From: Montanilutibacter psychrotolerans
GTDB lineage: Bacteria > Pseudomonadota > Gammaproteobacteria > Xanthomonadales > Xanthomonadaceae
DNA: 64,000 bases
Assembly: GCF_003719825.1 (NCBI RefSeq)
Contig: NZ_RIBS01000008.1
Location: 51,324 to 115,323 of the forward strand
Direction of reading: 5' to 3'
Shown in pieces: positions 18,933 to 36,273 of the stretch; positions within the stretch are counted from its first letter, which is position 1; each line of letters opens with the position of its first letter. A program made the translations under genes and the position numbers. Under the pieces are notes generated by a model. That model saw only the letters and a program-made list of their open reading frames with translations, was not told the DNA's origin and made no database searches.

Positions 18933-20612
18933 TCAAGCGCGCCGCCACGGCCAGGCTGCCAGCAGCGCCCAGAGGCCGCCGAGCCCGGCGATCCACGAAG
19001 ACGCAGGCACTCCGACGAAGCGCGGACCGCCGGCTTCCAACCCGTACAGCACGGCCGCCACGATCAGCAGGCCGGTGCCAAGGATGGCCGCGACCGCGCG
19101 TCGCGTCGCGTCCTTGACCGAACGCGTGAGCTCGGCCATGTCGTCCGAGCGCATCTTGAGCTCGTGCCCGCCACTGACCTGCTGGTCCAGCCAGGCGTGC
19201 AGCAGCCGCGGCATTTCCGGCGCGTGGGTGATCAGCTCCGGCAGTCGCTTGCGGAACTCGCTGGCCAGGCGCTGCGGGCTGTAGCGCTCGACCAGGATCT
19301 TCTGCAGCACCGGCCGCGCCACGGCCCAGATGTCGAGTTTCGGATCGAGCAGGCGACCGACGCCTTCGATGTTGAGCAGGGTCTTCTGCAGGAGGATCAA
19401 CTGCGGCTGCAGCGTCAGCTCGTAGCGCTGCGCGGTGCGGAACAGCTTGACCAGCACCTCGGCCAGCGAGATCTCGCTGAGCGGGCGCGTGAAGTAGGGT
19501 TCGCAGACCGCGCGCGCCGCGGCCTCGAGCTCGTCGATGCGCGTGTGCGCGGGCATCCAGCCGGCCCGCACGTGCAACTCGGCGATGCGACGGTAATCGC
19601 GGTTGAAGATCGCCATGAAATTTTCGGCGAGGTAGTACTGATCCTCGTCCGACAGCTGGCCCATGATGCCGAAATCCAGCGCGATGAAGCGCGGGTTGGT
19701 GCGTCGCGCGGGGTCGGTGTCGACCCAGATGTTGCCGGCGTGCGCATCGGCGTGGAAGAAGTTGTCGCGGAACACCTGCGTGTAGAACACGCGCACGCCC
19801 TTGGCGGCCAGCGCGCTTCGGTCGATGCCGGCGGCGTCGAGCGCGGCGATGTCGTCGGAGGGAATGCCGCGCACGCGCTCCAGCGTCAGCGCGCGTTCGG
19901 CGGTGTGCGACCAGATCACCTCCGGCACGTACAGGTCGTCGCTGTCGAGCCAGAACCGCCGCAGCACGCTGGCGTTGCCACCTTCGCGCTGCAGGTCCAG
20001 CTCGGCGGCGAGCGTGTTCTCGATTTCGGCGACCACTTCGCGCGGGCGGATCTTGTCGGCGTTGGGGTGCGCACGTTCGACCACCGTGGCCAACGCGTTG
20101 AGCAGGGCGATATCGCCGGCGATCTGCTTCTCGATGTCGGGCCGCAGCACCTTGACCACCACCTCGCGCGGTGGCGCGCCGTCGACCGGCGGCAACGTCG
20201 CGGCGTGCACCTGCGCAATCGAGGCCGAGGCCAGCGGCGTGGTGTCGAACGATGCGAAGGCCTCGCTGACCGGACGTTCGAGCGCACGTTCGACGATCGC
20301 ACGCGCGGCCTCGCCGTCGAACGGCGCGACGCGGTCCTGCAGCAGCGCCAGCTCGACCGCGACATCGGCGGGAATCAGATCGCGACGGGTGGAGAGGATC
20401 TGCCCGAACTTGACGAAGATCGGACCGAGCTCCTGCAATGCCAGGCGCAGCCGCGCACCGGGCGACATCGCCTCGATCTCGGCCGAGGCGCGCGGCACGA
20501 ACGGCCGCGCGAGCTTGAGCCAGCGTTCGACCGGGGTGTCGTCGAGCAGCGCGTCGAGGCGATAGCGCAACAGCACCCGGCCGATGCGCCAGGCGCGCAG
20601 CGCCGACCTCAT
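18933..20612 (-). CDS. ubiB: Ubiquinone biosynthesis regulatory protein kinase UbiB
   Basis: ABC1/UbiB kinase domain ([33 protein letters not shown]..., [13 protein letters not shown]). Two C-terminal TM helices. Start overlaps the ubiJ stop (ATGA). Confidence 0.95.
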
Positions 20613-21274
20613 GCCGCGCCTCCGGCGCTGGCGGCGTCGACGCGAGCGCGGATGCGCGCGACACGTGCCGCGATGCGCTCCACGTCGTCGCGCAGGGTGT
20701 CGACGTCGTCGAAGAACGCATTGAGCTCGGCCTTGCCGAGCACGTCACGCGATTCCTCGGTCACGAATTCGGCGGCGTTGCCGGCAAACGCGCCCGCGGC
20801 ATCGCGCGCATGGCGCAGTCCGGCGCCGATTGCATCGGCCAGTTGCACGCCAATCACCTCGCCAAATGCCTGGACGAAGGGCTGTTGCCAGTCCGGATCG
20901 AAACGCGTGGCGAGCTTCTGCAGACGTCGCGCAAGATCGGCATCGCCCTCGATACGCAGCTTGCCGACCGGCGGCGCGTCGTCGTTGCGCAGGAACGGCA
21001 ACTGCGAGAAGAGCGCGCCCAGGGTGCTGCGCACCGACAGGTCGGGTTGTTCGGCGCCATCGACCGGCCCCACCGCGAGACGGTCGCCGGCGACGGTTAC
21101 CTGCAGCGCCAGTGGAGGCGCCGCCACATGCAGCGCGACACGGCGCCCGTCGAGTGCGCGCAGGCCATCACGGGTGTCGGGATCAAGCGCCAGCGCGCGG
21201 TTCAGCGCGGCCTCGAGCACGCGCCCGGCCAGCGATTTCAGCGCAGTGAGGGGATGTGGGGTCGGTGCGGTCAT
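20609..21274 (-). CDS. ubiJ: Ubiquinone biosynthesis accessory factor UbiJ (SCP2 domain)
   Basis: Position immediately upstream of ubiB with a 4-nt overlap. N-terminal SCP2-like region and the conserved ubiJ-ubiB synteny. Confidence 0.8.
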
Positions 21275-21461
21275 GCCGGCATTCTAACGGCCCGCGCCGC
21301 CGGGCTTGACGTGCCGAACCTGTCACGCCGGGTCGGGCACTTCGACCGGATTCGTCCAACGCCACCCGCCTGCCGGCGGCACGGGTTCTGGCAATCCGGG
21401 CCGATCGGCAGGCGGGCGACGGTGCGCGCGGCCCCGGGAGGCTCGCGCGTTGCGATCGGAG

Positions 21462-21620
21462 TCAGACCTTCCTGCCACGGAAGAAGGCGATGGCGGCCAG
21501 CACGAGGAACACCACGAACAGGATCTTGGCGATACCCGCTGCGGCACCTGCGATGCCACCGAAGCCGAGGACGGCGGCGATGATCGCGACAACCAGGAAT
21601 ACGACGGCGTAGTGCAGCAT
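21462..21620 (-). CDS. DUF1328 small membrane protein (52 aa)
   Basis: [52 protein letters not shown], two TM helices. The longer ORF (to 21884) is an Arg-rich read-through. Confidence 0.7.
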
Positions 21621-21682
21621 GGCGACCTCCAGAGGGGCTCGTTGCCCCGTTTGCAGCATCGAGATTCGCCAGTGCGCGGTCA

Positions 21683-22693
21683 TCAACTCGTGATGGCGAC
21701 CGGTTCGTGATGGGCGCCCTTCAGCCTCATGAGGCCTTCGTGAAAGGACACCTGCGGCACGTAGCCGAAGTCGCGCCGCGCCGGTCCCATGTTGTACCAG
21801 TGCGTGGTCACCAGTTGCTCGGCGAGGAAGCGCGTCATCGGCGGTTCGCCCTTGAGCGGCAGGACATGCCACAGCCCTTCGCACAGCACGCCGGCCGCGT
21901 AGGCGACACGGAATGGAACGGTCTTGTCGACCTGCGGCGCGCCGACTGCCGCCAGCAGCCCGTTGAGCGTCTCGCGCATCGTCCTGGGCTCACCGTTGCT
22001 GATGAAGTACGCGCGCCCCGCGCAGGCCGCGCCCGGAGCGAGCGCGTCGAACGCATCCAGGTGCGCCCGGGCCGCGTTGTCGATGTAGGTGGTATCGACG
22101 AGGTTGCTGCCATCGCCGACCAGGCGCAGTCGCCCGGCGTTGGCGCGTTCGACCAGGCGCGGCAGCAGCTGGTTGTCGCCCACGCCCCAGATCAAGCGCG
22201 GGCGCAACGCGACGGTCGCAAGCGACGCGTCGTTGGCGGCCAGCACTGCCAGTTCGGCGATCTTCTTGGTGGTCGCGTACGGCGCCTTGAAGCCCTCGCC
22301 GTACGGCACGGTGTCGGCAGTGCCGCCCTCGACCGGGTGCGTGGCGCGATGGGTCACGCTGGGTGTCGAGGTGTAGACCAGCCTGGCGATACGGTGCTCG
22401 CGGCAGGCCGCCAGCACATTGTCGGTGCCCACCACGTTGGCTTGGTGGTAGCTGTCGTAGCTGCCCCACGCGCCGGCCTTGGCCGCGTTGTGGAACACCG
22501 CCTCGCACCCCTGTGCCGCCGCGACCACGGCGTCGCGCGAGGCGAGATCGCCCTGCACCTGGGTCACGCCGATCGCATCGAGCGCGGGGTAACGCCCGCG
22601 ATTGAAGCTGACGACCTCGTGGCCGCGCGCGCGCAGACCGCGGCACAACGCCTGCCCGAGGAAACCACCACCACCGGTCACGAGGATCTTCAT
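21683..22693 (-). CDS. oleD: NAD(P)H-dependent reductase of the 3-beta-HSD/epimerase family, OleD-like
   Basis: [16 protein letters not shown] Rossmann and YxxxK. Sits downstream of an AMP-ligase and an alpha/beta-hydrolase in the characteristic oleB-oleC-oleD order. Confidence 0.8.
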
Positions 22694-22777
22694 GGGTACC
22701 CGCTGTTCGTTTGCCGTTGTGCCATCGCCCGGCGACGACGATGCTGCCGCCGTCGTCCTGCTAGCCGGTTCCGCCGC

Positions 22778-24424
22778 CTAGGCCGATTCCGCGGCCCATG
22801 CCGCCAGTTTCTCGCGTCCGATCTTGGCATTGTGGCGAATGTCGACCGGGAACTTCGGATGGCGCAGGAAGCGTGCGATGCCGGCCGTGTGCGGATGCGC
22901 GGCGCCAATGGCGCGCAGCTCGCTCTCGATGCGCGGCCAGTGCCGGCCGTCCACGCCCTGGGCCAGCTCGACGCACAGTACCGCCTGCTGTTGTCCCATC
23001 GGCCCGATCCCGACCAACGCGGTGCGCCGCACCTGGTCGTGGACGTTGAACACCGGCTCGACCTGCTCGGTGTACAACGGACCGGACGCGCACTCGACCC
23101 GGTGCGATTTGCGGCCGCAGAACCAGAGCCGACCCTGGGCATCGAAGTAGCCCACGTCGCCCATGCGATGAACGATGCGCTCGCCGGCATCGACGTCGCC
23201 ACGCGGTTCGCGGATCTTCGCCAGCCGCGTCATTGCGTCGCGATTGAAATAGCTGTCGGTGGTGGTCGGCCCCACGACGGTGATCTCGCCCACTTCGCCC
23301 GTGGGAACGCACAGCGCGTCCGACCACCGCTCGACGGCGTCGTCGCTGATGCGGATGATACGGACCTCGTTCGGTGCGACCGCGCGACCAACGCAGGTTC
23401 CCGCGCCGCTTTCCGTTGCCGCACGCGTGGCCTGCAGCTCGCGCCCCTCGATCACTGCCACAGGCAGGCACTCGGTGGCGCCGTACGGCGTCCAGAACTG
23501 CGCATCGGCAGGCAACAGTTCCCGCATCCGCGCCACCACGTCGGCCGGCACCGGAGCACCGGCCGATGTCACGCGCTTCACGCCCGGCAGCGGCTGCCCG
23601 TGACGCGCCAGCACCGCCATCAGCGCCGGCGAGCCGAACAGCTGGTCGACACCGAAGCGCGCGATCGCATCGTGCAACCTGCGCGGGTCGGCGAGCGCTG
23701 GCTTGGTCGCGTCCATGTCCGGGATGACCGAGGTCACGCCCAGTGCCGGATCGAACAGCGCGAACGGCGGGAAGGTTGGCAGGTCCACAGCGCCGGCGCC
23801 GATGCCGAATGCTTCGCCCAGCATGGCGATCTGCGCGACGAAGTGGCGATGCCGGTAGACCACGCCCTTGGGCACGCCGGTGGAGCCGCTGGTGAACAGG
23901 ATCGCGGCGACGTCGTCGGGCCGCGTGTCGGCCAACTGTGCCGTCGCGCCGGCGCCGTCGCGCTCCACGCGCGCCAGCGTCGCGTCGGCCAGCAACGCGT
24001 GCCGGCCGGTGGTGATGCGCACGCGCGCCGATGACGCCCAACCCAGTACCACGCGAGCGAACTGCGCCAGGGGAATGCCGATGAAGGCCTCGGGCTGCGC
24101 TTCGTCGAGGCACTGCCGCAGCGCGCGGCGATCGATGCCGGGATCCACCAGCACCGGCACCGCGCCGGCCTTGAACAACGCGAACATCAGCAGGAAGAAT
24201 TCCGGCGACGGCCGCACCATCACCACCGTGCGGGTGCCGCGCACGATGCCGCGACGCGCCAGGCCAGCGGCGATCGCGTCGCTGCGCGCGTCCAGTTCGC
24301 GGTAACTCAGCTCGACGTCGTAGCGCGCCAGGCCGTCGGCGCCACGCGAGCCGGGGCAGCGCATCGCGATGCGATCGGGTGCCTCACGTGCCAGGCGCGG
24401 CAACGACGCGGCGATGTTGCACAC
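22778..24424 (-). CDS. oleC: AMP-dependent synthetase/ligase, OleC-like (beta-lactone synthetase)
   Basis: ANL-superfamily motifs TSGSTGVPKGV, YGATE, DVGYFD. Start uncertain: the ORF track extends to 24841 with a Cys/Arg/Thr-rich non-coding-looking N-terminus. Plausible starts are GTG ~24424 (VCNIAASLPRLARE...) or ATG 24370. Confidence 0.8.
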   Translation of the reverse strand: MCNIAASLPRLAREAPDRIAMRCPGSRGADGLARYDVELSYRELDARSDAIAAGLARRGIVRGTRTVVMVRPSPEFFLLMFALFKAGAVPVLVDPGIDRRALRQCLDEAQPEAFIGIPLAQFARVVLGWASSARVRITTGRHALLADATLARVERDGAGATAQLADTRPDDVAAILFTSGSTGVPKGVVYRHRHFVAQIAMLGEAFGIGAGAVDLPTFPPFALFDPALGVTSVIPDMDATKPALADPRRLHDAIARFGVDQLFGSPALMAVLARHGQPLPGVKRVTSAGAPVPADVVARMRELLPADAQFWTPYGATECLPVAVIEGRELQATRAATESGAGTCVGRAVAPNEVRIIRISDDAVERWSDALCVPTGEVGEITVVGPTTTDSYFNRDAMTRLAKIREPRGDVDAGERIVHRMGDVGYFDAQGRLWFCGRKSHRVECASGPLYTEQVEPVFNVHDQVRRTALVGIGPMGQQQAVLCVELAQGVDGRHWPRIESELRAIGAAHPHTAGIARFLRHPKFPVDIRHNAKIGREKLAAWAAESA

Positions 24425-24584
24425 GCCCGAGTCCCCAGACGATTCCCGCACGGATTGCCCCGCCCCACGATCGCCGTCGGTCGCCTCGTCGGTCACGGCT
24501 GCGGCCCGTGTCCGGCAACCATCCTCCGCGCGACGCGCGGTGGCGACGCGATGGGAAGAACGCCGGTCACCACCGCCGCCACGT

Positions 24585-25505
24585 TCATTTCGCCAGCGCG
24601 TCTGCGTCGAGGAAGCGACGGATCGCCGGCACCAGCACGTCGGCCTTGTCTTCGAGCACGTAGTGGCCCGCGTCCTCGAACTGGTGCACCTGCGCCTGCG
24701 GCAATGCGCTGGTGAATCCCGCGAGGAAGTGGTGGTCGAACACGAAGTCCTTGAGACCCCAGCCGATGAACGCCGGGCGATCGGCGTACGACGGCAACTT
24801 CGCCGCCATCGCCTGCACCAGCGGCCACGCCGCATCGCCATCGCCCAGCGGGATGTCCTGCACGAAGCGCGAGGTCGAGATGCGGTTGGCCCAGCTGTCG
24901 TACGGCGCGAGGAAGGCGCGGCGGACGGCGCGCGGCATCGGTTGCACCACGCCCATGCTGGCAGCGCCGCCGGCGAAGGCGTTGAAGCCGCGGATCAGGC
25001 CGGTGCCGATCGCCGAATCGCGCCCGAGCTTGAGGCGCTTGGGCAGCGACTTGGCCGCCGGCAGCGGGAACGCGCCGGTGTTGAGCACCACCAGGCGCTG
25101 GATCTGGTCGGAATGCCGCAGCCCCCAACCGAAGCCGATCGCCCCACCCCAGTCGTGCACGGCCAGGGTGACCGGGCCGGTGATGCCCAGGTGCGACAGC
25201 AGCGCCTCGACATCGTCGACGCGCGACTGCAGCGTGTAGCGATAGCGGTCTTCGCCGGGCTTATCGGACAGGCCCATGCCCACGTGGTCGGGCACGATGC
25301 AGCGATAGCGGTCGCGCAGGCCCAGCACCAGCTTGCGCCACAGATAGCTCCACGACGGATTGCCGTGCAGCATCACCACGGTTCCGTCGTGGTCGACGCC
25401 TTCGTCCAGGTAGCTCATCCCGATGCCGGGACGCACCTCGAAACGCTGCGCGGTGAAGGGATAGTCGGGGAAGGTCCGGGCTTGCTGGGGGCTCAGGCTC
25501 ATCGA
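24585..25505 (-). CDS. oleB: Alpha/beta-hydrolase (haloalkane-dehalogenase-like), OleB-like
   Basis: HGNPSWSYLWR, nucleophile elbow VHDWGG, C-terminal His. Start placed at the internal MSLSPQQARTF. Confidence 0.8.
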   Translation of the reverse strand, partial: SMSLSPQQARTFPDYPFTAQRFEVRPGIGMSYLDEGVDHDGTVVMLHGNPSWSYLWRKLVLGLRDRYRCIVPDHVGMGLSDKPGEDRYRYTLQSRVDDVEALLSHLGITGPVTLAVHDWGGAIGFGWGLRHSDQIQRLVVLNTGAFPLPAAKSLPKRLKLGRDSAIGTGLIRGFNAFAGGAASMGVVQPMPRAVRRAFLAPYDSWANRISTSRFVQDIPLGDGDAAWPLVQAMAAKLPSYADRPAFIGWGLKDFVFDHHFLAGFTSALPQAQVHQFEDAGHYVLEDKADVLVPAIRRFLDADALAK

Positions 25506-25622
25506 TAACGGTTCATGCGCCCCGGCCCGGCGCGGTGCGCGGGCCTGGCGGGCTGGGCCGGCATTATCCGTCGTGGGCCGGGCCATGAACACTTCGGCGT
25601 GCGCCGGGCCGTCCGGCAAGGC

Positions 25623-26315
25623 CTAGGCCAGGGCCGGGTACTTCGCCCACAGGGCGTCGAACTGGCCGCCGAAGCAGCGCACCAGGTAGGCGTCCTGGCT
25701 GACCACCAGGTTCTCGTCGTTGCTGGTGGTGGCGCTGCGGGTCCAGTTGAAGGAGCCGTTGGCCAGCGCGTTTCGGTCGAACAGGGCGAACTTGTGGTGC
25801 ATGTGGAACGCGCTGACGTCCAGTCGCACCGCGACGCCCTGGGCGGCCAGCATCGCGATGTCGCTGCCGGTATCGCCGCGCTTGTCGTTGTCGCTGATCA
25901 CCCGCACCGCGACGCCGCGTCGGTGGGCGGCGAGGATCTCCTCGCTGAGCCGATCGTCGGAGATAGTGTAGACGCAGATGTCCAGGCTGCGCTTGGCGCC
26001 GCGGCACATCTCGCGCAACTTGCGCAGGCAGCTTTCGCCGGGCGAGAAGTAGGCGCTGCTGGAGGCAGCGGCCACCGCAGCGGACAGGTCGAGGGTCTTG
26101 ACCACCTGTTCGAGCCAACGCAATGCATCCAGCATCCGCGCCGGCTCGGCGATCATCAGCTCGCGCGCCATCGCGAACGCGCGGTTGCGCAGGTAACGGA
26201 TGTGCTCGGCGTCGATCCGTCCGCCGAGTTCGCGCAGCTCGAACTTCTCGTCGTTGTCGAGCTGCAGGTCGGCAACGCTGCTGCGCAGCGCTTCGTCGAG
26301 TTGCTGGAAATCCAT
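25623..26315 (-). CDS. Single-HKD phospholipase-D-family protein (nuclease- or lipid-acting), 230 aa
   Basis: Perfect HKD motif HMHHKFALFDRNALANGSFN (HxKxxxxDxxxxxxGSxN) at about 25776-25805, plus an ~90-aa N-terminal helical extension. Starts 21 nt after the stop of the giant ATPase gene and is probably co-transcribed with it. Confidence 0.8.
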   Translation of the reverse strand: MDFQQLDEALRSSVADLQLDNDEKFELRELGGRIDAEHIRYLRNRAFAMARELMIAEPARMLDALRWLEQVVKTLDLSAAVAAASSSAYFSPGESCLRKLREMCRGAKRSLDICVYTISDDRLSEEILAAHRRGVAVRVISDNDKRGDTGSDIAMLAAQGVAVRLDVSAFHMHHKFALFDRNALANGSFNWTRSATTSNDENLVVSQDAYLVRCFGGQFDALWAKYPALA

Positions 26316-26336
26316 GCCGTCTCCGGTGGGTAGCGC

Positions 26337-29300
26337 TCAGCGCCGTGTACGTTCGTGCAGGCGCGCGGCGATCTCGGACAGTGCCAGATGAAGGCGCATC
26401 TGCTCCTCGGTGGACACCCCCGGGGCCGCCGGCGCGACGCTGGCGGTGGTACCGGCCGGCTGCTGCTTGAGCTGGGCGAGCGCCTCGACCAGCGATTGCT
26501 GCATCCGCTCCTGCTGTGCCTGGCGATCCTGCAGGCCGGCGACCAGCGGTGCGAACGCGGCCTGCAACGCGGCGGCGAGGTCCACCGCGCCCAGTTGCGG
26601 CTCCCGGGCGTCGGTTGGCGCCTGCGGCGCCACGACCGGGCGCGCCTGCGCCGTCGCCACGCCTTCGAGCAACTCGACGATGCGCGGCCACGGCGCCGCT
26701 TCGGCCTTCGGCGCCGGCTCGCCAACCGTGGCATCGAGCGCGCGCACGCCCTCGACCAGGTCGGCCAGCTGCGCCACCACGCGCCCGCCGACGTCATCTT
26801 CGCTGCCGCCCATCGCCTTGTTGCGCAGGAAATCGCGCTTGATCTGGGCCCAGCGTTCGGCCTGGGCAGGGTCGAGTACGCCACGCAGCTCGGCCAGCTT
26901 GAGCAGGTTCTCCTCGGCGCCCGTGGTCAGCAGTTGCGCCTCGCCCAGATAGTGATCGCCGATCAGTTGCTGCAACTCGGCCTCGTTCATCACCGGCGAA
27001 ATTTTCTCGGCCAGCTTGTTCATGTTGCGATAGCTGCCCTGCAACCGGAACGGCGGTTCGACGCGGTACTTGTCGGCCTGCGCCGCGCTGGCGATGTACT
27101 GCTGGTTGACCCGGTAGACGACGTCGCGCACCTGCATCAACCGCTGAAGGGTCGCGACGATCTCGTTGATCTCCGCGCCGCTGTACGCATGGCTCAGGTC
27201 GTTGGCGGAGAACTCCCGGCCGCGGGCCTTCTCGACCAGGCGATAGAGGTCGCCAAGATCGCGCGTGGCCAACGGTGCCAGCACCGGATTGCTGGTCAGG
27301 CAGTTCTCGACATAGCTCAGCGTGAAGGCATCCTCCATGCCGCCCAGCACGTCGCCGAGGTTGTAGATGTCGGCGCGGTTGGCCAGCATGTCCGGGATCT
27401 TGAAGACCTCGCCCGACTCGGTGTACGGGTTGCCGGCCATCACCACGCAGAACTTCTTCCCGCGCATGTCGTAGGTGCGCGTTCGCCCCTTCCACACGCC
27501 TTCGATGCGGCGCGTGCCGTCGCACAGCGAGATGAACTTCTGCAGGAATTCGGGGTGCGTGTGCTGGATGTCATCGACATACAGCATCACGTTGTTGCCC
27601 ATCTCCAGGGCGAGGTTGAGCTTTTCCAGTTCCTGTCGCGCGGTGGCGTCGGGCGCCTGCACCGGGTCGAGCGACCGCACCTCGTGGCCCAACGCAGGGC
27701 CGTTGATCTTCATGAAGATCAACCCGAGCCGATGCGCCACGTACTCCATCAGCGTGGTCTTTCCGTAGCCCGGTGGCGAGATCATCATCAGCAGGCCCAT
27801 CAGGTCGCTGCGCTTGGCCTCTCCGACCGTGCCGATCTGCTTGGCGAGGTTGTCGCCGATCACCGGCAAGTAAATGTCGTTGATCAGCTTGTTGCGCACG
27901 AACGAGCTCAACGGCCGCGGCTTGAACTCCTCCAGCCGCAGCGAGTCACGATGCCGAGCCAGCACCTCGTGACGCAGCGTCTGGTAACGCTGGAAGCCGG
28001 GAACGAACACCTCGCGGTGCTGCTGCAGGCGCGCACTGAACTCGTCCACGCCCAGCGCCAGGCGACCGCCGTCGATGCGGGCATGCTGGCCCAGCAGGCC
28101 TTCCACGACGACGCGAAGATCGACCTCGGTGACCCGGCGCGCGATGCCCTCGTCGATCAGCCACAGCGCAACGGCTTCGTCGAGGTAGTCCGAGAGCGCG
28201 GCGTGTTCGGGCTCGCTGCACAGCGCCTGCAACCAATGGCGGGCGAGGCTCCAGCGCGCGCCGAGGCGGCCGTCCAGCTGCGCGAGCGTGCGCTGCACGC
28301 CATCCCACAGATGCGCCGCGGCCAGCCGTTGCTGCAGCGCGCCGAGCAACCGCTGTGCGTATTTGCTGAAGACGAACTGCGGGTGGTCGGCCGACAGTTC
28401 GAGCACCAGGTAGGCCGCCGCGCGCGCCGCCAGCGGCGCCGCGACCGGCAGCGCCTGTGCGTCGACCACGCCCTGGATCGCGCTGGCGACCTCTCCCTGC
28501 AGGGCCTGCAACGCATCGCGCCGACCGAACATCCGCTCGATGGCGCTGGCGCTGCGTGCCCGTTCTGGCCACTGCGAGGGCAGGTCCTGTGTGCGCAACG
28601 TGGACCATGCCAGCACCGCCAGCGCACGCGCGTCAGCGGCGTGGACCAACGCACCTGCGCTGTCCAGCAACGGCAGCAGCGAGCGCAGGATCAGCGCGGC
28701 GTCGTGGTCGTGGATGCCCTTCTCGTAGCCCTCGCGGTACCGCGGCGCGGCGAAGTCGCGCAACGTGCGTTCGAGCTGTTCGGGCTGCAGCAGCTGTTGG
28801 CGCAGCAGATCCGGCGTCAGCCCGTCAGTGCGATCGCGCGCAGCGTCCAGCACCCGCCCCGCCAGGTACTCGGCGCGATACAGGGTCGCCGACTCCGAAT
28901 CGAGCGCGACCTGCCAGTAATCCCGCAGCGCCTGCAGGCCGTCGTCGTGCAGCGGCTCGAGGTAGTCGGTGCCGGTCAGCTGCAGGTTCAGGCCATCGCC
29001 GCGCGCGAGCACGGTGATGTCGAGTTCCTGCGTGTTGACGCTGAAGCGATGGCGCGGGCCCAGCTTGATGACGTCGCCGCCCGCCTCGAACAGCTCGCTG
29101 CGATCGCGCAGCGCGCGCACCGCCTGGTCGCGCGCGCCCTTGAGGCGCGCCTCGACGTCATCGGCCTTGACGTTGTCGCGCAGCGTGCGCAGTCGGGTGG
29201 CCAGCTCGCGCAGCTTGAGGATCAGCGCGTCCCCGGCGAAGAACGCATTGAGCTCGGCCGGGTCGGCCAGGCGCGCGGTGCGCCTGCCCAGGCCGTCGAG

Positions 29301-31718
29301 GATGCGCGTGGCCGCGTCCATGACCGCCTGCGCCTTGCGCTGGCGGTCGTCGAGCAGGGACTGCTTGTGGGTCTCGAAGGTTTCCAGCAGCTCTTCGCGC
29401 TTGGCGAGGATGTCGCCAAGGAACTGCTCGTGTTCGCCGAACTGGCTTTCCAGTTCTTCCAGTTGCACCAGCAACCGCGACATCTGCTCGTCGCAGCGCT
29501 CGGGATCGGTGGACAGCGCCAGTGCGCTGGTGATGCCCTGGCCGAACAGCGTGAACTGCGCGCCGAACTGGGCGATCGCCTCGCTCGATCCGAGCTGCTT
29601 GCGGCGCTGATCGGCGCGCGCCTTGGCCTGGTTGAGCCGCGCGTACACCTGCGAGATCGACTCGACGATGCGCGTGCGTTGCGTGGCGTCGTCGACCTTC
29701 AGCGTGGCCATCAGCGCCGACAGCATGTCCAGGTCGGCCGACATCGATTGCATCTGCGCCAGTGTCCTGGCGAGCTCAGCCGCGCTGACCGCCTGTTGCG
29801 CCTGCGTGTCGAGTAGCTGGAGGCGCTCGAGCAGCGGCGCGAGCGCCTTGTCGCTGGCCAGGAACCCGCCCGTGGCGGCGCCGGTGGCCTCGTGCGCGGA
29901 AAGCAGCTGCGCTTCCATCGCATCGATGGTGGCAACGTCGATGTAGCGGTACTCGCGGATCGTCAGCAGGTGCCCGCGCAGCGCCGACAAACCGTTGAGG
30001 GCGTCGACGAACTCCTGCACCTGCTGCCAGTTGTCCGGCAGCAGTGTGGCCAGCAACGCCGCCTGCCGGGCCTGCGCGTCGCGCAGCGCCTGCGCGGACT
30101 GGTCGCGGATGCCCTGCACCTTCTCGAACTCGTCGAGCACGGCCTCGCTGGTGGCGGCGATGTCGTGCAACAGCTTGCCGGTGTCGCCGCAGTTCGGGTC
30201 GGCGATCCAGTGGTGCAGGTCGAACAGGCGCCGGGTGTTCTGGCCGAGCTGCGCATAGCGCTGCACCGAGACGTCCGGGCTGTCGATCTCGCGGCACAGG
30301 CTCAGCACGTCCGACAGCCCACGAACCAGCTCGGCGTTGCCGATCTTGCCCATGAACCCGGTGCCGCGGGGCTGGTGCGCCGCGTGGTCCTCGCTGCAGA
30401 ACGGCGTCTGCCAGACCTGCATCGGATGCACGCGCGTTGGCTCCACGCCTTCGGCGCTGAAGATCACCATGCGGCCGTCGTCCAGGCGCGCCCAGCCGTG
30501 CCCGAAGATCGGCGTCTGCAGGCGACGCTCGATCATGTTGTAGGTGAACAGCGCCGAGCGTCCCTCGACGGGTTCGTAGAAGACGTACAGCACGTCCTCG
30601 CCGTTGGGCGAGCGGATCGCACGCTGGAACGCCATGCCGTGCATGGACTGCTCGAACGCCTTGTTCTCTCCGCTGGGCAGGTAGTAGCCGCCCGGGAAGA
30701 TGATGCCGTGGTCCTCGGGCAGCTGGATGCACGCCAGCCCGATCGCATCGATGCGCTGCACCGAGCGCGTGAGCGTGTTGAACACCAGGTAGCGCCACGT
30801 CGACTCGCGGTACGGCAGCACTTTCAGCAGCACCAGGCTGCCGATGGCCGCGAACTCCACGTGCGCGTCGTCGAGCGACTGCGTCTTGTCGTCCACCGGC
30901 TCGCGGTAGACGCCCAGACCGTCCTTGGTGTTGTCCTCGATCTTGATCGTCAGATCGCCGGCAAACGTCTCGACGAACAGCTTGTCGAGGATGTTGAGAT
31001 GCGGATGCCGACCGTGCACCACCATCTCGCGCGTCGCGCGGGTCCACTCGAAGTCGAACGGCGCCGGCGGCACGATATCGCGTTCACCGCGATTGTCGAT
31101 GTAGGCGACCTCGCCACTGGTGGCGACCGACCAGCGGAACACGCGGACGTCGTCGATGCGCTCGCCAATCTGGAAGGCGGCCAGCAGCTTGCCGTCGCGC
31201 ACCGCCAGCTGCACCAGCCGGGTGCTCTTGTAGTACGCGTAGAGCTCGTTGAAGTCGCGCACGAATGCGGCATCGCCGAGGAAGCTGCTCGCCGGATCGA
31301 CCGCTTCGGCATCGTAGCCGTCGGCGCCCTCGATCAGCCGATGCAGTGAGAACACGTCCTCGACACGGGTGTCCTTGCGCAGCCCGATGAACACGTTGTA
31401 GCCGAACAGCAGGCAATCGCCGACCTGGACGATGTCGCGCGCGACGCAGTTGTTCTCGGTGCGGATGCGCAGCCGCCCGACCACTTCCATCGCACTGCTG
31501 CCGAACTGCTGCAGGCGTTGCTGGTTGAGCCCTTCGGCCACGCCGCGCAGGCGCTGACCCTGGTCCGCCAGTCGCTTGTGCAGCACCTCGTAGGCGCCGC
31601 CCTGGGCCACGGCCTGGTCGATCTGCGCGGTGTCGGGCCCGGTCGATCCGGTCGGCCCGGCCGACGGCGACGAAGACGGGGCGGTCGACGAGGCGCTCTG
31701 CGAAGTGTTCTGCGACAT
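26337..31718 (-). CDS. Giant (~1,793 aa) coiled-coil protein with a single C-terminal AAA+ ATPase core of MoxR/dynein (AAA_5-like) type
   Basis: Walker A MMISPPGYGKTTL (about 27755-27790), Walker B NVMLYVDDIQHT (about 27560-27590), sensor-1-like VVMAGNPYTE, and MoxR-like spacing (DDIQHTHPEFLQKFISLCDG...IEGVWKG...FCVVMAGNP). N-terminal ~450 aa globular (beta-rich), then >700 aa of helical/coiled-coil sequence. ATG 31718 is preceded by AGGA; the ORF track starts at GTG 31736. Confidence 0.8.
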   Translation of the reverse strand: MSQNTSQSASSTAPSSSPSAGPTGSTGPDTAQIDQAVAQGGAYEVLHKRLADQGQRLRGVAEGLNQQRLQQFGSSAMEVVGRLRIRTENNCVARDIVQVGDCLLFGYNVFIGLRKDTRVEDVFSLHRLIEGADGYDAEAVDPASSFLGDAAFVRDFNELYAYYKSTRLVQLAVRDGKLLAAFQIGERIDDVRVFRWSVATSGEVAYIDNRGERDIVPPAPFDFEWTRATREMVVHGRHPHLNILDKLFVETFAGDLTIKIEDNTKDGLGVYREPVDDKTQSLDDAHVEFAAIGSLVLLKVLPYRESTWRYLVFNTLTRSVQRIDAIGLACIQLPEDHGIIFPGGYYLPSGENKAFEQSMHGMAFQRAIRSPNGEDVLYVFYEPVEGRSALFTYNMIERRLQTPIFGHGWARLDDGRMVIFSAEGVEPTRVHPMQVWQTPFCSEDHAAHQPRGTGFMGKIGNAELVRGLSDVLSLCREIDSPDVSVQRYAQLGQNTRRLFDLHHWIADPNCGDTGKLLHDIAATSEAVLDEFEKVQGIRDQSAQALRDAQARQAALLATLLPDNWQQVQEFVDALNGLSALRGHLLTIREYRYIDVATIDAMEAQLLSAHEATGAATGGFLASDKALAPLLERLQLLDTQAQQAVSAAELARTLAQMQSMSADLDMLSALMATLKVDDATQRTRIVESISQVYARLNQAKARADQRRKQLGSSEAIAQFGAQFTLFGQGITSALALSTDPERCDEQMSRLLVQLEELESQFGEHEQFLGDILAKREELLETFETHKQSLLDDRQRKAQAVMDAATRILDGLGRRTARLADPAELNAFFAGDALILKLRELATRLRTLRDNVKADDVEARLKGARDQAVRALRDRSELFEAGGDVIKLGPRHRFSVNTQELDITVLARGDGLNLQLTGTDYLEPLHDDGLQALRDYWQVALDSESATLYRAEYLAGRVLDAARDRTDGLTPDLLRQQLLQPEQLERTLRDFAAPRYREGYEKGIHDHDAALILRSLLPLLDSAGALVHAADARALAVLAWSTLRTQDLPSQWPERARSASAIERMFGRRDALQALQGEVASAIQGVVDAQALPVAAPLAARAAAYLVLELSADHPQFVFSKYAQRLLGALQQRLAAAHLWDGVQRTLAQLDGRLGARWSLARHWLQALCSEPEHAALSDYLDEAVALWLIDEGIARRVTEVDLRVVVEGLLGQHARIDGGRLALGVDEFSARLQQHREVFVPGFQRYQTLRHEVLARHRDSLRLEEFKPRPLSSFVRNKLINDIYLPVIGDNLAKQIGTVGEAKRSDLMGLLMMISPPGYGKTTLMEYVAHRLGLIFMKINGPALGHEVRSLDPVQAPDATARQELEKLNLALEMGNNVMLYVDDIQHTHPEFLQKFISLCDGTRRIEGVWKGRTRTYDMRGKKFCVVMAGNPYTESGEVFKIPDMLANRADIYNLGDVLGGMEDAFTLSYVENCLTSNPVLAPLATRDLGDLYRLVEKARGREFSANDLSHAYSGAEINEIVATLQRLMQVRDVVYRVNQQYIASAAQADKYRVEPPFRLQGSYRNMNKLAEKISPVMNEAELQQLIGDHYLGEAQLLTTGAEENLLKLAELRGVLDPAQAERWAQIKRDFLRNKAMGGSEDDVGGRVVAQLADLVEGVRALDATVGEPAPKAEAAPWPRIVELLEGVATAQARPVVAPQAPTDAREPQLGAVDLAAALQAAFAPLVAGLQDRQAQQERMQQSLVEALAQLKQQPAGTTASVAPAAPGVSTEEQMRLHLALSEIAARLHERTRR

Positions 31719-31833
31719 CAGGTGTCCATCCTGCACGGTTCGGATCCGCGACCGGGGCCGCGGGTACTGACTGTTGCGTGGCGTACCGGTCGCGCAGCCC
31801 CTGCGCAGGACGCAGGGGGCGCGGACGATTCAC

Positions 31834-33906
31834 TCAGCCGCCCAGCGATGTCTCGCTGCTCTTCTCGGCAACGTCGAGCGGCTTGCCGATAGCGGCCTTG
31901 CCATCCCCGCTCTTGGCCAGCAGGCGCTGCAGGACGTCCTGCACGATCGGGCTCTTGCCGGCCACGCCCTCGATCGCCTTGCCCACCGAGAGCGCCTTGG
32001 CGAACGAATCGAAGAACGCACCTTCGCCGCCGACGATATCGATGTTGGCCTTGCTGAGCGCCGCGGCGAGCACGTCGGACTGCTCCTTCGCGATTTCCTT
32101 GTTGGCCTCGATGCCGGCCATCGCCTGCTCGAAGCTCTTTTCCAGCTGCATGCGGAACTCTTCGTGCTGGCGTGCGTCGTCGCTGAGCGCGTCGAGCGCG
32201 TTGAACTTCTGCGCCAGGCCCTCGGCTTCCGACTTGAACTTCTGCAGCAGCACGTCGGCCTCGGACATGCCCAGGTCGCGGGTCGCCTTGGCCTTCGCGC
32301 TGCCCAGCGACTCTTCGCCGCGCGCCTGCGCGAACAGGTTCTCTTCCAGCACCTTGGCGTCGGACAAGCCCTGCTTCTGCTTGGCGTCGGCATGCGCCTC
32401 GATCACGCGCGCCTGCGCCAGGCCCTTCTCCTGCTCGCCGCGCGCCTCGGCAACGAGTTGCTCGGCAGTGACCTTGGCGTTGACCAGGCCTTCCTTCTCG
32501 GCCGCGGCCGCGGTGACCTCACGCACGCGTGCATCGGCAAGACCGGGCGCCGCGCGTTCGGCCTCGATGCCTTCGGCGAGCTTCTTCTTGGCCTCGGCCT
32601 GCTTGCCGGCCGCTTCGAGCTCGGCCTGCGCCAGCACCGTCACCTCGACCGCCTTGTGCTTGGACGCCACCTCGTCGGCCTCGGCCTGCTTCACCTGGCG
32701 GACCAGCTCCTGCTCGGCCTCGGCCTGCGCGTTGAGGATGGTGACCTGCTTGGAGCGGTCGGCCTCGGACACCTCACGCACTTCCTTGATGCGCTCTTCT
32801 TCCTGGGCAACGGTCTTCTCGACCGCAACGCGCTCGCGGATCACGTTCGCGATTTCCTTGCGCTGCACTTCCAGCGCCTTTTCCTTGTCGATCTTCTGCA
32901 GCTCGACCTCGCGCTCGCGCGACACCACTTCCAGGTCCTTGGCGCGGGTCACCTTCTCGACTTCGATGACCACCGCACGCTGGCGGTTCTGCTGGGCCAC
33001 CTCGACTTCGCGCTGGTGGTTTTCGGCACGGATGTCGAGCTGCTCCTGCACCTGGATGCGGGCCTGCTCGGCCTTGAGCCGCTCTTCTTCCTGCACCTTG
33101 GCGGTTTCGGCCTGCTCGCGCGCCTGGATGGTCAGGATCTCGCGCTTCTGGCGCGCCTCGGCGTCAGCCTGCTGGCGCTCAAGCGCCAGCATCGCTTCGC
33201 GCGCTTCGACGTTCTTCTTGGTGATCGCCAGCTTCTCGTTCTGTTCGAGTTCGTTGGTGATGACGTTCTGCGCGGCGGTCAGCTCGGTGATCTTGCGAAT
33301 GCCTTCGGCGTCGAGGATGTTGCTCGGATCGAGCGAGCTCTTCGGGGTCTGTTCGAGGTAGTCGATCGCGACGTCCTCGAGCACGTAGCCGTTGAGGTCG
33401 TTTCCGATCACTTCGATGATCTGGTCGCGGAACTGCTGGCGGTTCTCGAACAGCTTCACGAACTCGATCTGCTTGCCGACGGTCTTCAGCGCCTCGGAGA
33501 ACTTGGCGTTGAACAACTCGTTGACGGCGTCGCGGTCGGACGCGCGATCGACACCGATCGCCTTGGCCACGCGCAGCACGTCGGCCTGGGTCTCGTTGAC
33601 GCGCAGGTAGAACGCCACGGTGATGTCGGCGCGCATGTTGTCGCGACAGATCAGCCCGTCCTTGCCGCGGCGATCGACCTCCAGCGTCAGCAGGGAGATC
33701 TTCATGAACTCCTTCTTGTAGATCACCGGGTACACCATCGCGCCGGTGAAATGCACTTTCGGGGTCGCCGACAGGTCGTTGACGATCAGCGCGGTGCCCT
33801 GCGGAACCTTGACGTAGAAGGTCTTGAACAGCCCGAACATGCCCAGGATCAGGAGGAACAGGACACCGGTTCCGATCAGGAACGGCATGACTTGCGCAGC
33901 ATTCAT
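31834..33906 (-). CDS. Flotillin/SPFH (band-7) family protein, YqiK-like, with extended E/A/K-rich coiled coil (690 aa)
   Basis: N-terminal TM helix, SPFH domain (QGTALIVNDLSATPKVHFTGAMVYPVIYK...), long EA-repeat coiled coil. Located immediately downstream of a YqiJ-like gene, as in the E. coli yqiJK pair. Confidence 0.85.
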   Translation of the reverse strand: MNAAQVMPFLIGTGVLFLLILGMFGLFKTFYVKVPQGTALIVNDLSATPKVHFTGAMVYPVIYKKEFMKISLLTLEVDRRGKDGLICRDNMRADITVAFYLRVNETQADVLRVAKAIGVDRASDRDAVNELFNAKFSEALKTVGKQIEFVKLFENRQQFRDQIIEVIGNDLNGYVLEDVAIDYLEQTPKSSLDPSNILDAEGIRKITELTAAQNVITNELEQNEKLAITKKNVEAREAMLALERQQADAEARQKREILTIQAREQAETAKVQEEERLKAEQARIQVQEQLDIRAENHQREVEVAQQNRQRAVVIEVEKVTRAKDLEVVSREREVELQKIDKEKALEVQRKEIANVIRERVAVEKTVAQEEERIKEVREVSEADRSKQVTILNAQAEAEQELVRQVKQAEADEVASKHKAVEVTVLAQAELEAAGKQAEAKKKLAEGIEAERAAPGLADARVREVTAAAAEKEGLVNAKVTAEQLVAEARGEQEKGLAQARVIEAHADAKQKQGLSDAKVLEENLFAQARGEESLGSAKAKATRDLGMSEADVLLQKFKSEAEGLAQKFNALDALSDDARQHEEFRMQLEKSFEQAMAGIEANKEIAKEQSDVLAAALSKANIDIVGGEGAFFDSFAKALSVGKAIEGVAGKSPIVQDVLQRLLAKSGDGKAAIGKPLDVAEKSSETSLGG

Positions 33907-33946: not shown

Positions 33947-34585
33947 TCACAGGCCCTGGAATTCGTCTTCGCCGATCACGCGATAGGCGTTCTCGGTGGC
34001 GAGGTATTCGATGAGTACGACGCGGTCGCCGCGTTGGAACGCCTGTTGCCCGTGGCTGCGCACCTGCAGGGTCAGGGCCGCGCCACCGTCGTCGAACGCT
34101 GCGTAGCCGCGCACCGGCGACACGTCGGGACTGCGCACCACGCCGACCTGGCCGAGGATCGAACGCGCCGATGCCGGGCGCAGACGCTCGAAGACCTTGC
34201 GGAAGGGCCGCAGCACGAACGAGGTCGCAAACAGCCCGGCGAGCGCGGACAGCAGCATCACCACCACGCCCAGCACCCACCGGAGCCACTCGAACGGCAG
34301 GTGGCGCAGCAGCAGGTAGTCGGTGAAGTAGCTCGCCAGCCACGCGAAGAACACCAGCACGGTGAGGATCAGCGACAGCGGAATCCCGCCGAGGCGGAAC
34401 TTCATCAGCAGGCCGGCGACGCCTTCGATGTCCAGGCTGTCGCCATCGGGCACTTGCGCCGCGTCGAGCGCGTCGATCTCGACGATGCCCAGCGCGGCCA
34501 TCAGCCAGTAGCCCGCCGCGACCGTCAGCACAACGCTGAACAGCACGGTGGGAAACGCCAGAACAATCTGTAGGAATACGTCCAT
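33947..34585 (-). CDS. YqiJ/NfeD-like inner-membrane protein (DUF1449-like) with C-terminal OB-fold
   Basis: Three to four TM helices followed by a soluble beta-rich C-terminus (GQVGVVRSPDVSPVRGYAAFDDGGAALTLQV...GDRVVLIEY). Paired with the flotillin gene 40 nt downstream. Confidence 0.7.
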   Translation of the reverse strand: MDVFLQIVLAFPTVLFSVVLTVAAGYWLMAALGIVEIDALDAAQVPDGDSLDIEGVAGLLMKFRLGGIPLSLILTVLVFFAWLASYFTDYLLLRHLPFEWLRWVLGVVVMLLSALAGLFATSFVLRPFRKVFERLRPASARSILGQVGVVRSPDVSPVRGYAAFDDGGAALTLQVRSHGQQAFQRGDRVVLIEYLATENAYRVIGEDEFQGL

Positions 34586-34763: not shown

Positions 34764-35456
34764 TCAGCCGGCGGCCTTTTCCTTGAGTCGCGCCAGCACC
34801 GATTCCGCGCTGGCCGCGTCGGCGATGATGCCGGCCTCGCGCAGCTTGGTGTCGAGCGCGTCCTGGCCTTCTTCCTTGGCCAGCTCGGCCGCGGCTTCCA
34901 TGCGCGCACCGCGCTCGGCCTGCTTGTGCTTGATGCGTTCAAGCGAATCGACCGCGGTCTGCAGCCTGGTCTGCGAGCCGCTGTAGCGGTGCGCGACGGT
35001 GGCCTGCGCACGTTGCACGCTTTCGGTGGCCTTGACCGTGTCGACCTGCTGCTTGAGCCGGCGGATGTTGCCTTCCGCCTGGGCGATGGCGCGACGCAGG
35101 TCGGCCACGCTCGCGGCGAACTGTTCAACCTGCTGCCGGTCGGTGTCGCGGCTGGTCTCGAGCACCGCGATCTTTGCGGCGACTTCACGGGCGAGGTTCT
35201 CGTCGTTGGAACCCAGCGCCTTCATCGCGTAGGCCTCGTATTCGGCGATCTTCTCGTGCGACTTGGCCAGACGGCCCTCGGCGAGCTTGTGCTTGGCCAT
35301 GATCTCGGCCAGCGCTTCCTTGGAGCGGCGCAGCTCGGTATCGGAGTCGCGGATTTCCTGGTCGAGGATGCGCAGCGCCTGGCCGTCGACCAGCGTTTCG
35401 CCGACTTCGTTCGCGCCGCCACGCAGTGCGGTCAACAGCTTGCTCCAGATGTTCAT
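34764..35456 (-). CDS. PspA/IM30 (ESCRT-III-like) family protein, YjfJ-like, 230 aa
   Basis: Entire length is coiled-coil with the PspA/IM30 N-terminal signature (MNIWSKLLTALRGGANEVGETLVDGQALRILDQEIRD...) and the same size as E. coli YjfJ. Confidence 0.85.
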   Translation of the reverse strand: MNIWSKLLTALRGGANEVGETLVDGQALRILDQEIRDSDTELRRSKEALAEIMAKHKLAEGRLAKSHEKIAEYEAYAMKALGSNDENLAREVAAKIAVLETSRDTDRQQVEQFAASVADLRRAIAQAEGNIRRLKQQVDTVKATESVQRAQATVAHRYSGSQTRLQTAVDSLERIKHKQAERGARMEAAAELAKEEGQDALDTKLREAGIIADAASAESVLARLKEKAAG

Positions 35457-35483: not shown

Positions 35484-35924
35484 TTATGCCGCTTCACGCA
35501 GCTGCGACTCGAACGCCTCGGTGGCGCTGATCACGTTGTCGGCAAGCGTGTCGATCTCGAACAGCACGTCCGACAGGCTCGATCCGGCGCTGAGCGCGCC
35601 GAACATGATGTAGACCGCTTCGCCATCGATGTTCTCGATGCCAATCGTCGACAGCGGGAACATCTTGTGGGTGCGCAGGACCTGCTCGTTGAACCCGGCG
35701 GGGTCGCGCACCTGCGAGACCGGCCACAGCAACGCCTCGACCACGATCTGTTCGCCCACCACGGCCATGAACAGGGGCAGGTCGCCGTAGTCGTGCATCA
35801 CCAGGTGCAGGCTGGGCTCGGCCCCGTCGAGCAACTCGACGCGCGCCGCACCGCTTTGGAACTGCTCGATCGCCGACATCGCCTCGTACAGGGCGGTCGC
35901 CGTCCAAATCTTGGGGTCGCTCAT
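35484..35924 (-). CDS. DUF2170 (YjfI-like) protein
   Basis: MSDPKIWTATALYEAMSAIEQF... with a GGAG Shine-Dalgarno 7 nt upstream of ATG 35924. The ORF continues in-frame a further 70 codons upstream (to 36134), encoding a basic N-terminal extension of uncertain reality. Confidence 0.65.
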   Translation of the reverse strand: MSDPKIWTATALYEAMSAIEQFQSGAARVELLDGAEPSLHLVMHDYGDLPLFMAVVGEQIVVEALLWPVSQVRDPAGFNEQVLRTHKMFPLSTIGIENIDGEAVYIMFGALSAGSSLSDVLFEIDTLADNVISATEAFESQLREAA

Positions 35925-36273
35925 TCCTTTCTCCCTCTGGATGGGCGCCAGGCCACGCGGCTGGCGCATGCGCTTCTCGACAGCCAGGAGCTCATCGGTG
36001 AACTCCGGCAGGATCCACAACTCCTTTTTCACCAGCCCCTTGTCGCGCAACCGCTCGCGGTGGCGTCGCTGGTAGTAGGCGGAAGATTTTCGTTCCATGT
36101 AAGACACCATATTCATCACATGTGACGTCGTCAACGGTTACACATGTGATGCCGACGAGCGGTAAGACGTCCGGCTGGCAGGCCCCATCGCACCGGCAGC
36201 GGCAGTCAGTCCTCAAACGAAAAAGCCCGGCGGATCGCTCCGCCGGGCTTCGGTTCACTGCGTGGTTGCGCGC

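Follow-up and report, generated by a model that had tools for sequence, protein, structure and literature searches.

What does a small enzyme of the phospholipase D (PLD) superfamily do at the end of a row of membrane-protein genes, directly behind a giant ATPase? The question is raised by a stretch of 64,000 nucleotides from Montanilutibacter psychrotolerans (contig NZ_RIBS01000008.1, positions 51,324 to 115,323; hereafter the window), in which a gene for a 230-aa protein with a single HKD motif begins 21 nt past the stop codon of a DUF3686 ATPase gene on the same strand, the minus strand of the window (Table 1). A preliminary description of this DNA had proposed that the two genes are translationally coupled and form a two-gene module with the PLD as its effector, either a nuclease as in defence systems or a lipid enzyme, and it had rightly posed the choice between nucleic acid and lipid as the central question. 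We found that the PLD gene is a facultative last gene of an operon known from Pseudomonas aeruginosa as bacABCDEF, linked to membrane stress and remodelling, and we hold with middling confidence that its product is a cytoplasmic phosphodiesterase acting on an anionic membrane lipid.

Judged from its sequence, the PLD gene is real, and the single-HKD enzyme that it encodes is intact and belongs to the Zucchini/Nuc clade. The codon-position GC of its open reading frame (ORF), 0.66/0.43/0.91, is as in real genes of this window of 68% GC, the ORF call and the translation place the start codon at the ATG of 26315-26313 on the minus strand, and the annotation of M. psychrotolerans holds an identical protein. 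The Pfam model PLDc_2 matches residues 102-223 in a single stretch (E 2e-26, 92.8 bits; cutoff 27), and the motif HMHHKFALFDRNALANGSFN fits the HxK(x)4D(x)6GSxN signature in full (H173, K175, D180, G187, S188 and N190), so that both the motif and the membership of the single-HKD PLD superfamily claimed in the preliminary description were borne out. In an alignment of 25 PLD homologues, H171, M172, H173, H174, K175, F176, A177, F179 and N186-R193 are invariant. Of the proposed translational coupling, the co-directional, tight spacing stands; the two genes do not overlap, the PLD gene has a Shine-Dalgarno sequence of its own (GGAG, five nt 5' of the ATG), and coupling is at most suggested by the spacing. 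A pattern scan found no terminator or promoter patterns between the ATPase, PLD and oleB genes.

The strength of the ATPase-PLD association was estimated from both sides. A DUF3686 search of 1.84 billion representative proteins returned 913 clusters at E<=0.001, mostly of 1600-2000 aa, and an alignment of 48 DUF3686 proteins led to 80 ATPase loci from species-representative genomes, which span Gamma- and Betaproteobacteria, myxobacteria, Acidobacteriota, one actinomycete and one metagenome-assembled genome of Clostridia. Neighbours were counted by local tblastn and hidden Markov models (HMM), upstream in the 69 loci with at least 6 kb of flank and downstream in the 73 loci with at least 2.5 kb. 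Upstream of the ATPase, a flotillin-like gene was present in 69/69 loci, a YqiJ-like gene in 68/69, PspA in 40/69 and DUF2170 in 34/69, and the order YqiJ-like, flotillin-like, ATPase was kept in 68-69 of the 69 loci, P. aeruginosa-type contigs included. Downstream, a PLD gene was found in 17 of the 73 loci (8 directly behind the ATPase, 8 with a rhomboid gene in between, 1 behind p250 and TelA), TelA without PLD in 13, rhomboid only in 2, and neither PLD, TelA nor rhomboid in 41. The 17 ATPase-PLD loci are spread over gamma- and betaproteobacteria, and close relatives of the window's genome (Stenotrophomonas, Luteimonas, Pseudoxanthomonas and Thermomonas) have ATPase loci without PLD. When the six-frame translations of the 80 ATPase loci were searched by HMM for divergent HKD genes at other places, none came up beyond the 17 PLD genes.

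From the PLD side, a metagenome scan with the PLD alignment gave 80 PLD loci, which were classified by context. Among the 54 resolvable loci, the ATPase lies upstream in 39, the PLD sits between oleB and oleC of an olefin (ole) cluster in 9 and it stands alone in 6; rhomboid or TelA lies upstream in seven loci on contigs too short to reach the ATPase, and 19 further loci fall outside the resolvable 54. In a neighbour-joining tree of the PLDs, bac-linked copies occur on all deep branches, ole-embedded copies form one clade nested among them, and standalone copies arise several times. Among the bac-linked arrangements, that of Marilutibacter alkalisoli equals that of the window, Pseudomonas sp. 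GOM6 has the full operon followed by rhomboid and PLD, Lysobacter daejeonensis has the order ATPase, 250-aa protein, TelA, PLD, and the second chromosome of Vibrio campbellii has the order YqiJ-like, flotillin-like, ATPase, PLD, TelA. Two Tahibacter species carry a full-length PLD (66-68% identical) with no ATPase nearby, one behind ubiJ-ubiB and the other alone, and standalone copies lie near aceK, behind htpG and in other settings; an SRPBCC/Polyketide_cyc2 domain was also seen 5' of the standalone PLD in locus L163.

Because the ATPase is upstream in 39/54 PLD loci and a PLD follows the ATPase in only 17/73 loci, the dependency is asymmetric: the PLD mostly travels with the ATPase operon, and the operon mostly does without the PLD. 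The core machine is made of the YqiJ-like protein, the flotillin-like protein and the ATPase, to which particular lineages have added PspA/BacA and the tail genes (PLD, rhomboid, TelA). The proposed two-gene module is unsupported because the PLD is absent from 56 of the 73 ATPase loci and unlinked from the ATPase in the Tahibacter, ole-embedded and standalone loci, so that neither constant co-occurrence nor constant linkage was found; the invariant partners of the ATPase are the YqiJ-like and flotillin-like genes, both of which, like PspA, had been correctly placed upstream in the window. What survives of the effector idea is an accessory component of the operon, as most PLDs of the subfamily sit in the ATPase operon.

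The tail of the operon also holds other genes. A rhomboid intramembrane protease gene often stands between ATPase and PLD; ten ATPase loci carry it, and in Xenorhabdus, Providencia and Entomomonas it stands behind the ATPase with no PLD present (rhomboid loci L001:9503-10000, L005, L010, L014, L017, L020, L021, L029, L050, L057, L059 and L070). TelA (PF05816, a toxic-anion/envelope-stress protein) is a second frequent tail in Xanthomonadales and Vibrio, with a total of 14 ATPase loci; it is usually preceded by an uncharacterised protein of ~250 aa and occurs with or without PLD, in either order (L012, L013, L015, L016, L019, L022, L024-L027, L033, L036, L047, L063, L087:7155-9001 and L168:10832-11764). 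Other genes tight behind the ATPase encode an MscK-like channel, a Peptidase_M50B protease of the intramembrane kind, an SRPBCC lipid-binding protein and a LuxR-STAND regulator, with no nuclease among them. The MscK-like mechanosensitive channel gene lies directly 3' of the ATPase in two Comamonas genomes, and the direct followers of the MscK-like, Peptidase_M50B and SRPBCC/Polyketide_cyc2 types are at L032:15581-19027, L034:15572-19060, L045:15237-15881 and L040:5669-6151.

The operon itself has been described. Ravi et al. 2024 (PMC11237479) reported an operon that combines a CesT/Tir (DUF2170)-PspA dyad with a band-7/flotillin protein, a YqiJ/YuaF protein and a novel AAA+ ATPase, to which some Proteobacteria add a PLD (HKD) hydrolase, and noted that abbreviated flotillin/YqiJ/AAA+ operons are more widespread. 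Every listed component is in the window, the optional PLD hydrolase included, and our locus counts reproduce the pattern described there; that paper gives no frequencies, PLD function, MitoPLD/Zucchini link, rhomboid or TelA tails, or ole context. In P. aeruginosa the operon is bacABCDEF, the 'biofilm-associated cluster', whose genes bacA-F are co-transcribed by reverse transcription PCR, for which a sigma-54 site has been proposed, and which affects biofilm, rhamnolipid secretion and virulence (PMC10948618). In a viable bacA mutant, BacB to BacF rise 6- to 13-fold, BacE 8.9-fold and BacF 6.1-fold; BacF (PA14_16200) is given only as a hypothetical protein and is never named a PLD (PMC10948618). 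The gene family, its place in the operon and its facultative nature are already in the literature, and the window gene is a further instance; literature searches found no papers on DUF3686 and none on BacF other than PMC10948618.

BacF can be equated with the PLD because the published bacE/bacF reverse primer covers the first codons of the PLD ORF. Five of the six published PA14 primers match the P. aeruginosa-type contigs L130, L131 and L135 exactly, and the bacE/bacF reverse primer is the reverse complement of PLD codons 1-7 (MDFDGLD) in all three. The bacE/bacF amplicon in these contigs (7846-8021) is 176 bp versus 501 bp in the supplement of the paper, and the bacD/bacE reverse primer has no match in them within two mismatches. 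The PLD of these contigs is 58% identical to that of the window and shares its N-terminal MDFxxLD domain, and the gene order (DUF2170/BacA, PspA/BacB, YqiJ-like, flotillin-like, DUF3686 ATPase/BacE, PLD/BacF) is also the same, from which we identify the window PLD, at the level of protein sequence, as the orthologue of BacF. The two operons differ in the ATPase-PLD spacer, for which the P. aeruginosa-type contigs have about 150 nt and the window 21 nt, and in that the window operon continues into oleB-oleC-oleD-ubiJ-ubiB with no predicted terminator.

These distributions bear directly on the defence logic of the preliminary description, in which the giant ATPase would sense infection and the PLD would act as a DrmC-like nuclease effector of an anti-phage two-gene unit. 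In PADLOC the PLD does match models of DrmC, MkoB/C and DpdK (E 6e-10 at best), and it shares the PLD-superfamily fold with DrmC of DISARM and is tightly spaced with the ATPase gene. The matches are weak, however, and lie below cutoffs (29 bits versus 133 for NCBIfam DrmC NF038319, 24.5 versus 100 for DpdK, the Mko models likewise), the ATPase has no defence-model match better than E 0.005, and bac, ole and ubi genes make up the mapped neighbourhood, no dedicated search for DrmA, DrmB or a methyltransferase having been made. The locus is chromosomal and syntenic in Xanthomonadales, Pseudomonas and Vibrio rather than island-like, more than three quarters of ATPase loci lack the PLD with the YqiJ-like and flotillin-like genes constant, and the P. 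aeruginosa operon is tied to the biofilm, rhamnolipid and virulence phenotypes and the proposed sigma-54 site (PMC10948618). A search of conjugative plasmids and phages did not find the full-length PLD family; the relatives there are Nuc-like, and those on more than 1600 plasmids consist of the catalytic domain only, at no more than 39% identity and without the N-terminal domain. We consequently rejected the reading of the PLD as a defence component, which we regard as highly improbable, and the ATPase-PLD pair is not a new defence system.

The protein has two parts. The 25 homologues, at 60-75% identity, align to the window PLD end to end, and the N-terminal block is conserved as well (invariant L6, D7, D16, E23, R28, R40, R43, N44, W67, E69-V72 and T74-D76). 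AlphaFold2 modelled the monomer at a predicted local distance difference test (pLDDT) score of 80 for the whole protein, and residues 1-88 alone at 86.5, as four helices forming a soluble, acidic bundle with an isoelectric point of about 4.8. The N-terminus MDFQQLDEALRSS contains no hydrophobic segment, signal peptide or transmembrane segment, from which the protein is predicted to be cytoplasmic. A single HKD in the chain and a catalytic domain of compact alpha/beta build, with the roughly 150 residues that mark the type, place it in the small single-HKD clade of the Nuc/NucT/Zucchini type, and by family it presumably forms a homodimer with one active site.

Its nearest solved relative is human PLD6 (MitoPLD), with 38% identity over 136 ungapped residues (E 2e-28, 9lkx_K; 2e-27 for mouse Zucchini 4ggj_A), followed in sequence by Nuc (1e-11) and NucT. 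Foldseek gave nearly the same order, mouse Zucchini 4ggj (E 6e-12), Drosophila Zucchini, Nuc 1byr (pKM101/Salmonella) and NucT 6ehi (E about 1e-10 for the Nuc and NucT endonucleases), with TM-scores of about 0.7-0.8 normalised to 4ggj, 1byr and 6ehi. The structural comparison suggested in the preliminary description, with Nuc and Zucchini among the candidates, came out for Zucchini and then Nuc. Unlike MitoPLD, which has an N-terminal transmembrane anchor for the outer mitochondrial membrane, the window PLD has the soluble four-helix domain in its place and is encoded in a bacterial operon; unlike the window PLD, Nuc-type plasmid relatives lack the N-terminal domain, and the NucT equivalog models score far below their cutoffs against it (best 47.5 bits, cutoff 211).

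A membrane phospholipid could well be the substrate. We favour it because the partners and the alternative tail genes (rhomboid, TelA, MscK-like, M50B and SRPBCC) are membrane or lipid proteins, because the only other conserved context of the PLD is a membrane-hydrocarbon (ole) cluster, because over-expression in the bacA mutant is tolerated, and because the closest characterised homologue, MitoPLD/PLD6, has been reported to turn cardiolipin into phosphatidic acid in membrane fusion. On this basis the PLD would be expressed along with the bac operon and act at the inner leaflet on an anionic phospholipid, either hydrolysing cardiolipin or phosphatidylglycerol to phosphatidic acid or carrying out transphosphatidylation. 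At the sites of flotillin and PspA assembly, the resulting lipid change would alter charge and curvature locally, akin to the reported action of MitoPLD on the mitochondrial surface.

Several points weigh against a lipid substrate, and some of them would favour a different activity. To our knowledge, the small single-HKD enzymes characterised in vitro (Nuc, NucT, BfiI and Zucchini) are nucleases, and the top sequence and fold matches of the PLD fall among them. The lipase activity of PLD6 is itself disputed, its substrate being RNA or cardiolipin. The titles of two 2012 Zucchini structure papers say nuclease or endoribonuclease. The PLD protein has neither a membrane anchor nor an amphipathic N-terminus, residues 1-88 being acidic and soluble, and PLD and oleB lie 120 nt apart, so that a transcript shared with the ole genes is no more than a possibility. 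Gene neighbourhood is also indirect evidence.

The homologues and the soluble, anchor-free protein would also fit a Zucchini/Nuc-like endonuclease on RNA or DNA that is co-expressed with the membrane-stress operon and has no lipid substrate, a reading we consider possible, if rather unlikely; such an enzyme might, as tentative examples, cut membrane-proximal RNA or degrade nucleic acid during envelope damage. However, no nucleic-acid-related gene recurs in the operon, the alternative tail genes encode membrane proteins, and the second conserved context of the PLD lies inside a lipid cluster. The 6-fold rise of BacF in a viable mutant also runs contrary to an unrestrained cytoplasmic nuclease. 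The catalytic domain is not basic but close to neutral, a weak point against a nuclease; since that of PLD6 is near neutral as well, net charge and isoelectric point were dropped as a discriminator between nuclease and lipase and are uninformative on the substrate. The nuclease and lipid readings are possibly compatible, as PLD3 and PLD4, first described as exonucleases, show both activities in one PLD enzyme. One report (PMC12055030) describes the synthesis of the lysosomal lipid bis(monoacylglycero)phosphate (BMP) by PLD3 and PLD4.

The ole context raises the further question of whether the PLD of Xanthomonadales functionally belongs to the ole cluster, its place behind the ATPase being a by-product of a bac operon that lies inside that cluster. 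Loci L112 (5411-12941) and L121 have the order oleA-oleB-PLD-oleC-oleD, then ubiJ-ubiB, with no ATPase within 8 kb and the identity of OleA confirmed, and seven shorter contigs also have the PLD between oleB and oleC (L094, L095, L102, L104, L113, L115 and L120). The PLD is followed directly by oleB in the window, L086, L088, L132 and L134, and in the Lysobacter-type loci L006, L009 and L030 the whole bac operon with its PLD sits between oleA and oleB (oleA at L009:1068-2081 and L030:3773-4792). Such an ole accessory nevertheless seems improbable to us. ATPase-PLD pairs occur without ole genes in Pseudomonas, Vibrio, Limnobaculum, Cellvibrionaceae and Burkholderiales, the ole-embedded PLDs group as one clade within the bac-linked PLDs, L046 retains the adjacency of ATPase and oleB without a PLD, and a targeted literature search for a PLD together with ole genes gave no paper. 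We therefore keep to the PLD as a facultative tail gene of the bac operon.

In the window, a codon-position GC filter marks eleven co-directional minus-strand genes from about 36134 to 18933, with the PLD among them (Table 1).

Table 1 Features of the PLD gene and its surroundings in the window, listed in the direction of transcription.
Feature	Position	Strand	Basis
Intrinsic terminator of the collagenase gene that precedes the operon, whose 5' limit it marks	36222..36251	minus	terminator scan
DUF2170/CesT-Tir-like protein, BacA equivalog, start codon uncertain	35484..36134	minus	PF09938 E 3e-51
PspA/IM30 family protein, BacB-like	34764..35456	minus	PF04012 E 7e-52
YqiJ/NfeD-like multi-transmembrane protein, 212 aa, C-terminal beta-rich domain, BacC-like	33947..34585	minus	translation
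Flotillin-like protein, 690 aa, N-terminal transmembrane helix and long coiled coil, BacD-like	31834..33906	minus	translation
Giant DUF3686/DUF7902/AAA+ ATPase, 1799 aa, BacE orthologue	26337..31736	minus	Pfam
Spacer, ATPase stop to PLD start, 21 nt, GGAG Shine-Dalgarno	26316..26336	minus	read from sequence
Single-HKD PLD-superfamily gene, 230 aa, orthologue of P. aeruginosa BacF	25623..26315	minus	ORF, translation, PLDc_2 E 2e-26
Family-specific N-terminal four-helix domain, residues 1-88	26052..26315	minus	no transmembrane segment or signal peptide
Catalytic domain, residues 91-226, MitoPLD/Zucchini-like	25638..26045	minus	alignment to PLD6, Foldseek
HKD catalytic motif HMHHKFALFDRNALANGSFN, residues 171-190	25746..25805	minus	read from sequence and translation
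OleB-like alpha/beta hydrolase, next gene 3' of PLD	24585..25502	minus	Abhydrolase_1 E 2e-29
OleC, olefin beta-lactone synthetase	22778..24421	minus	NCBIfam NF045786, 1053 bits, cutoff 900
OleD, 2-alkyl-3-oxoalkanoate reductase	21683..22693	minus	NCBIfam NF042422, 636 bits, cutoff 580
SCP2 protein and ABC1/UbiB kinase	3' of oleD	minus	domain matches

The ATPase, built of beta-propeller, coiled-coil and AAA+ parts, has Pfam matches to DUF3686 (E 1e-202) and DUF7902 as well as to an AAA domain at about residue 1316, and the DUF2170 protein scores 342 bits (cutoff 300) with NCBIfam NF050185, 'biofilm formation regulator BacA'. The flotillin-like and YqiJ-like proteins have no Pfam or NCBIfam match; they are named here after sequence features and after Ravi et al. 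2024 (PMC11237479), the source of the flotillin-like architecture and the YqiJ/NfeD-like assignment. Sequence searches of solved structures in the PDB with the flotillin-like protein and the ATPase gave chance or Walker-A-level matches only.

Downstream, a GC-rich spacer of about 120 nt separates the PLD stop from the likely oleB start, the ATG at 25502; the longest oleB ORF reaches 25619, and the gene call for its homologue in L086 gives 298 aa. NF045786 aligns to residues 141-685 of the long oleC ORF (22778-24841), so that the real start lies near residue 141, and the longest oleC and oleB-like ORFs overlap by 257 nt. Compared with an oleABCD olefin cluster, the window holds OleC and OleD above their cutoffs and an OleB-like protein, all behind the PLD (18933-25619), and no OleA homologue anywhere in its 64 kb (tblastn, E 1e-3); the ole cluster is therefore split or incomplete here.

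The terminator of the collagenase gene, a strong one, is the sole minus-strand terminator-like site within 18000-36400, and the scan found no such pattern between it and 18000. The gap ahead of the BacA-like gene (36135-36222) has no match to the sigma-54 pattern TGGCAC-N5-TTGC with two mismatches allowed; in the whole window this pattern gave 69 matches at this setting versus 89 expected by chance. A sigma-70-like TTGACG-17-TATGGT overlaps the nominal start of the BacA-like gene (~36112-36147, minus strand), and two copies of the palindrome-containing TCACATGTG, ~24 nt from start to start, overlap this sigma-70-like site in the same interval; the paired TCACATGTG copies may be an operator.

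Two further loci of the window lie outside the operon. An ORF of ~80 aa with a weak EF-hand-like match (40285-40530, minus strand) is 41% identical to a conserved homologue (L001:3834-4073), which in Pseudomonas separates the flotillin-like gene from that of the ATPase and in Lysobacter lies 5' of bacA; in the window, a GntR regulator and an M9 collagenase gene lie between it and the operon. At 42025-46290 (minus strand) is a gene for a VasX_N-domain protein of 1062 aa, of the type of membrane-targeting toxins of type VI secretion systems, and then a weak DUF6708 match; the two are likely an effector/immunity pair unrelated to the PLD.

The above analyses add four points that appear not to have been stated before, namely that BacF is specifically MitoPLD/Zucchini-like, that PLD, rhomboid and TelA make up a variable cassette at the end of the operon, that PLDs of this subfamily also occur inside ole clusters, and that oleA and oleB enclose the whole bac operon in Lysobacter-type genomes. 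None of the bac proteins has an established biochemical function, and BacF, as an HKD enzyme, is a testable handle on the membrane effect of the operon; the optional tail, in which PLD alternates or combines with rhomboid and TelA, and the ole-embedded PLD are further handles. The subfamily also bears on a long-standing dispute about the activity of PLD6-type enzymes, lipase or nuclease, as it offers a bacterial orthologue in a purely membrane context and as an easily assayed protein. As a more speculative and, in our estimate, unlikely extension, the PLD subfamily would be the bacterial counterpart, possibly the source, of MitoPLD, recruited to flotillin/PspA (ESCRT-III-like) assemblies and converting cardiolipin or phosphatidylglycerol to phosphatidic acid in membrane repair or fusion, with the ATPase as a Vps4-like remodeller. 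If this were true, membrane remodelling assisted by a lipid signal of the mitochondrial type would predate eukaryotes.

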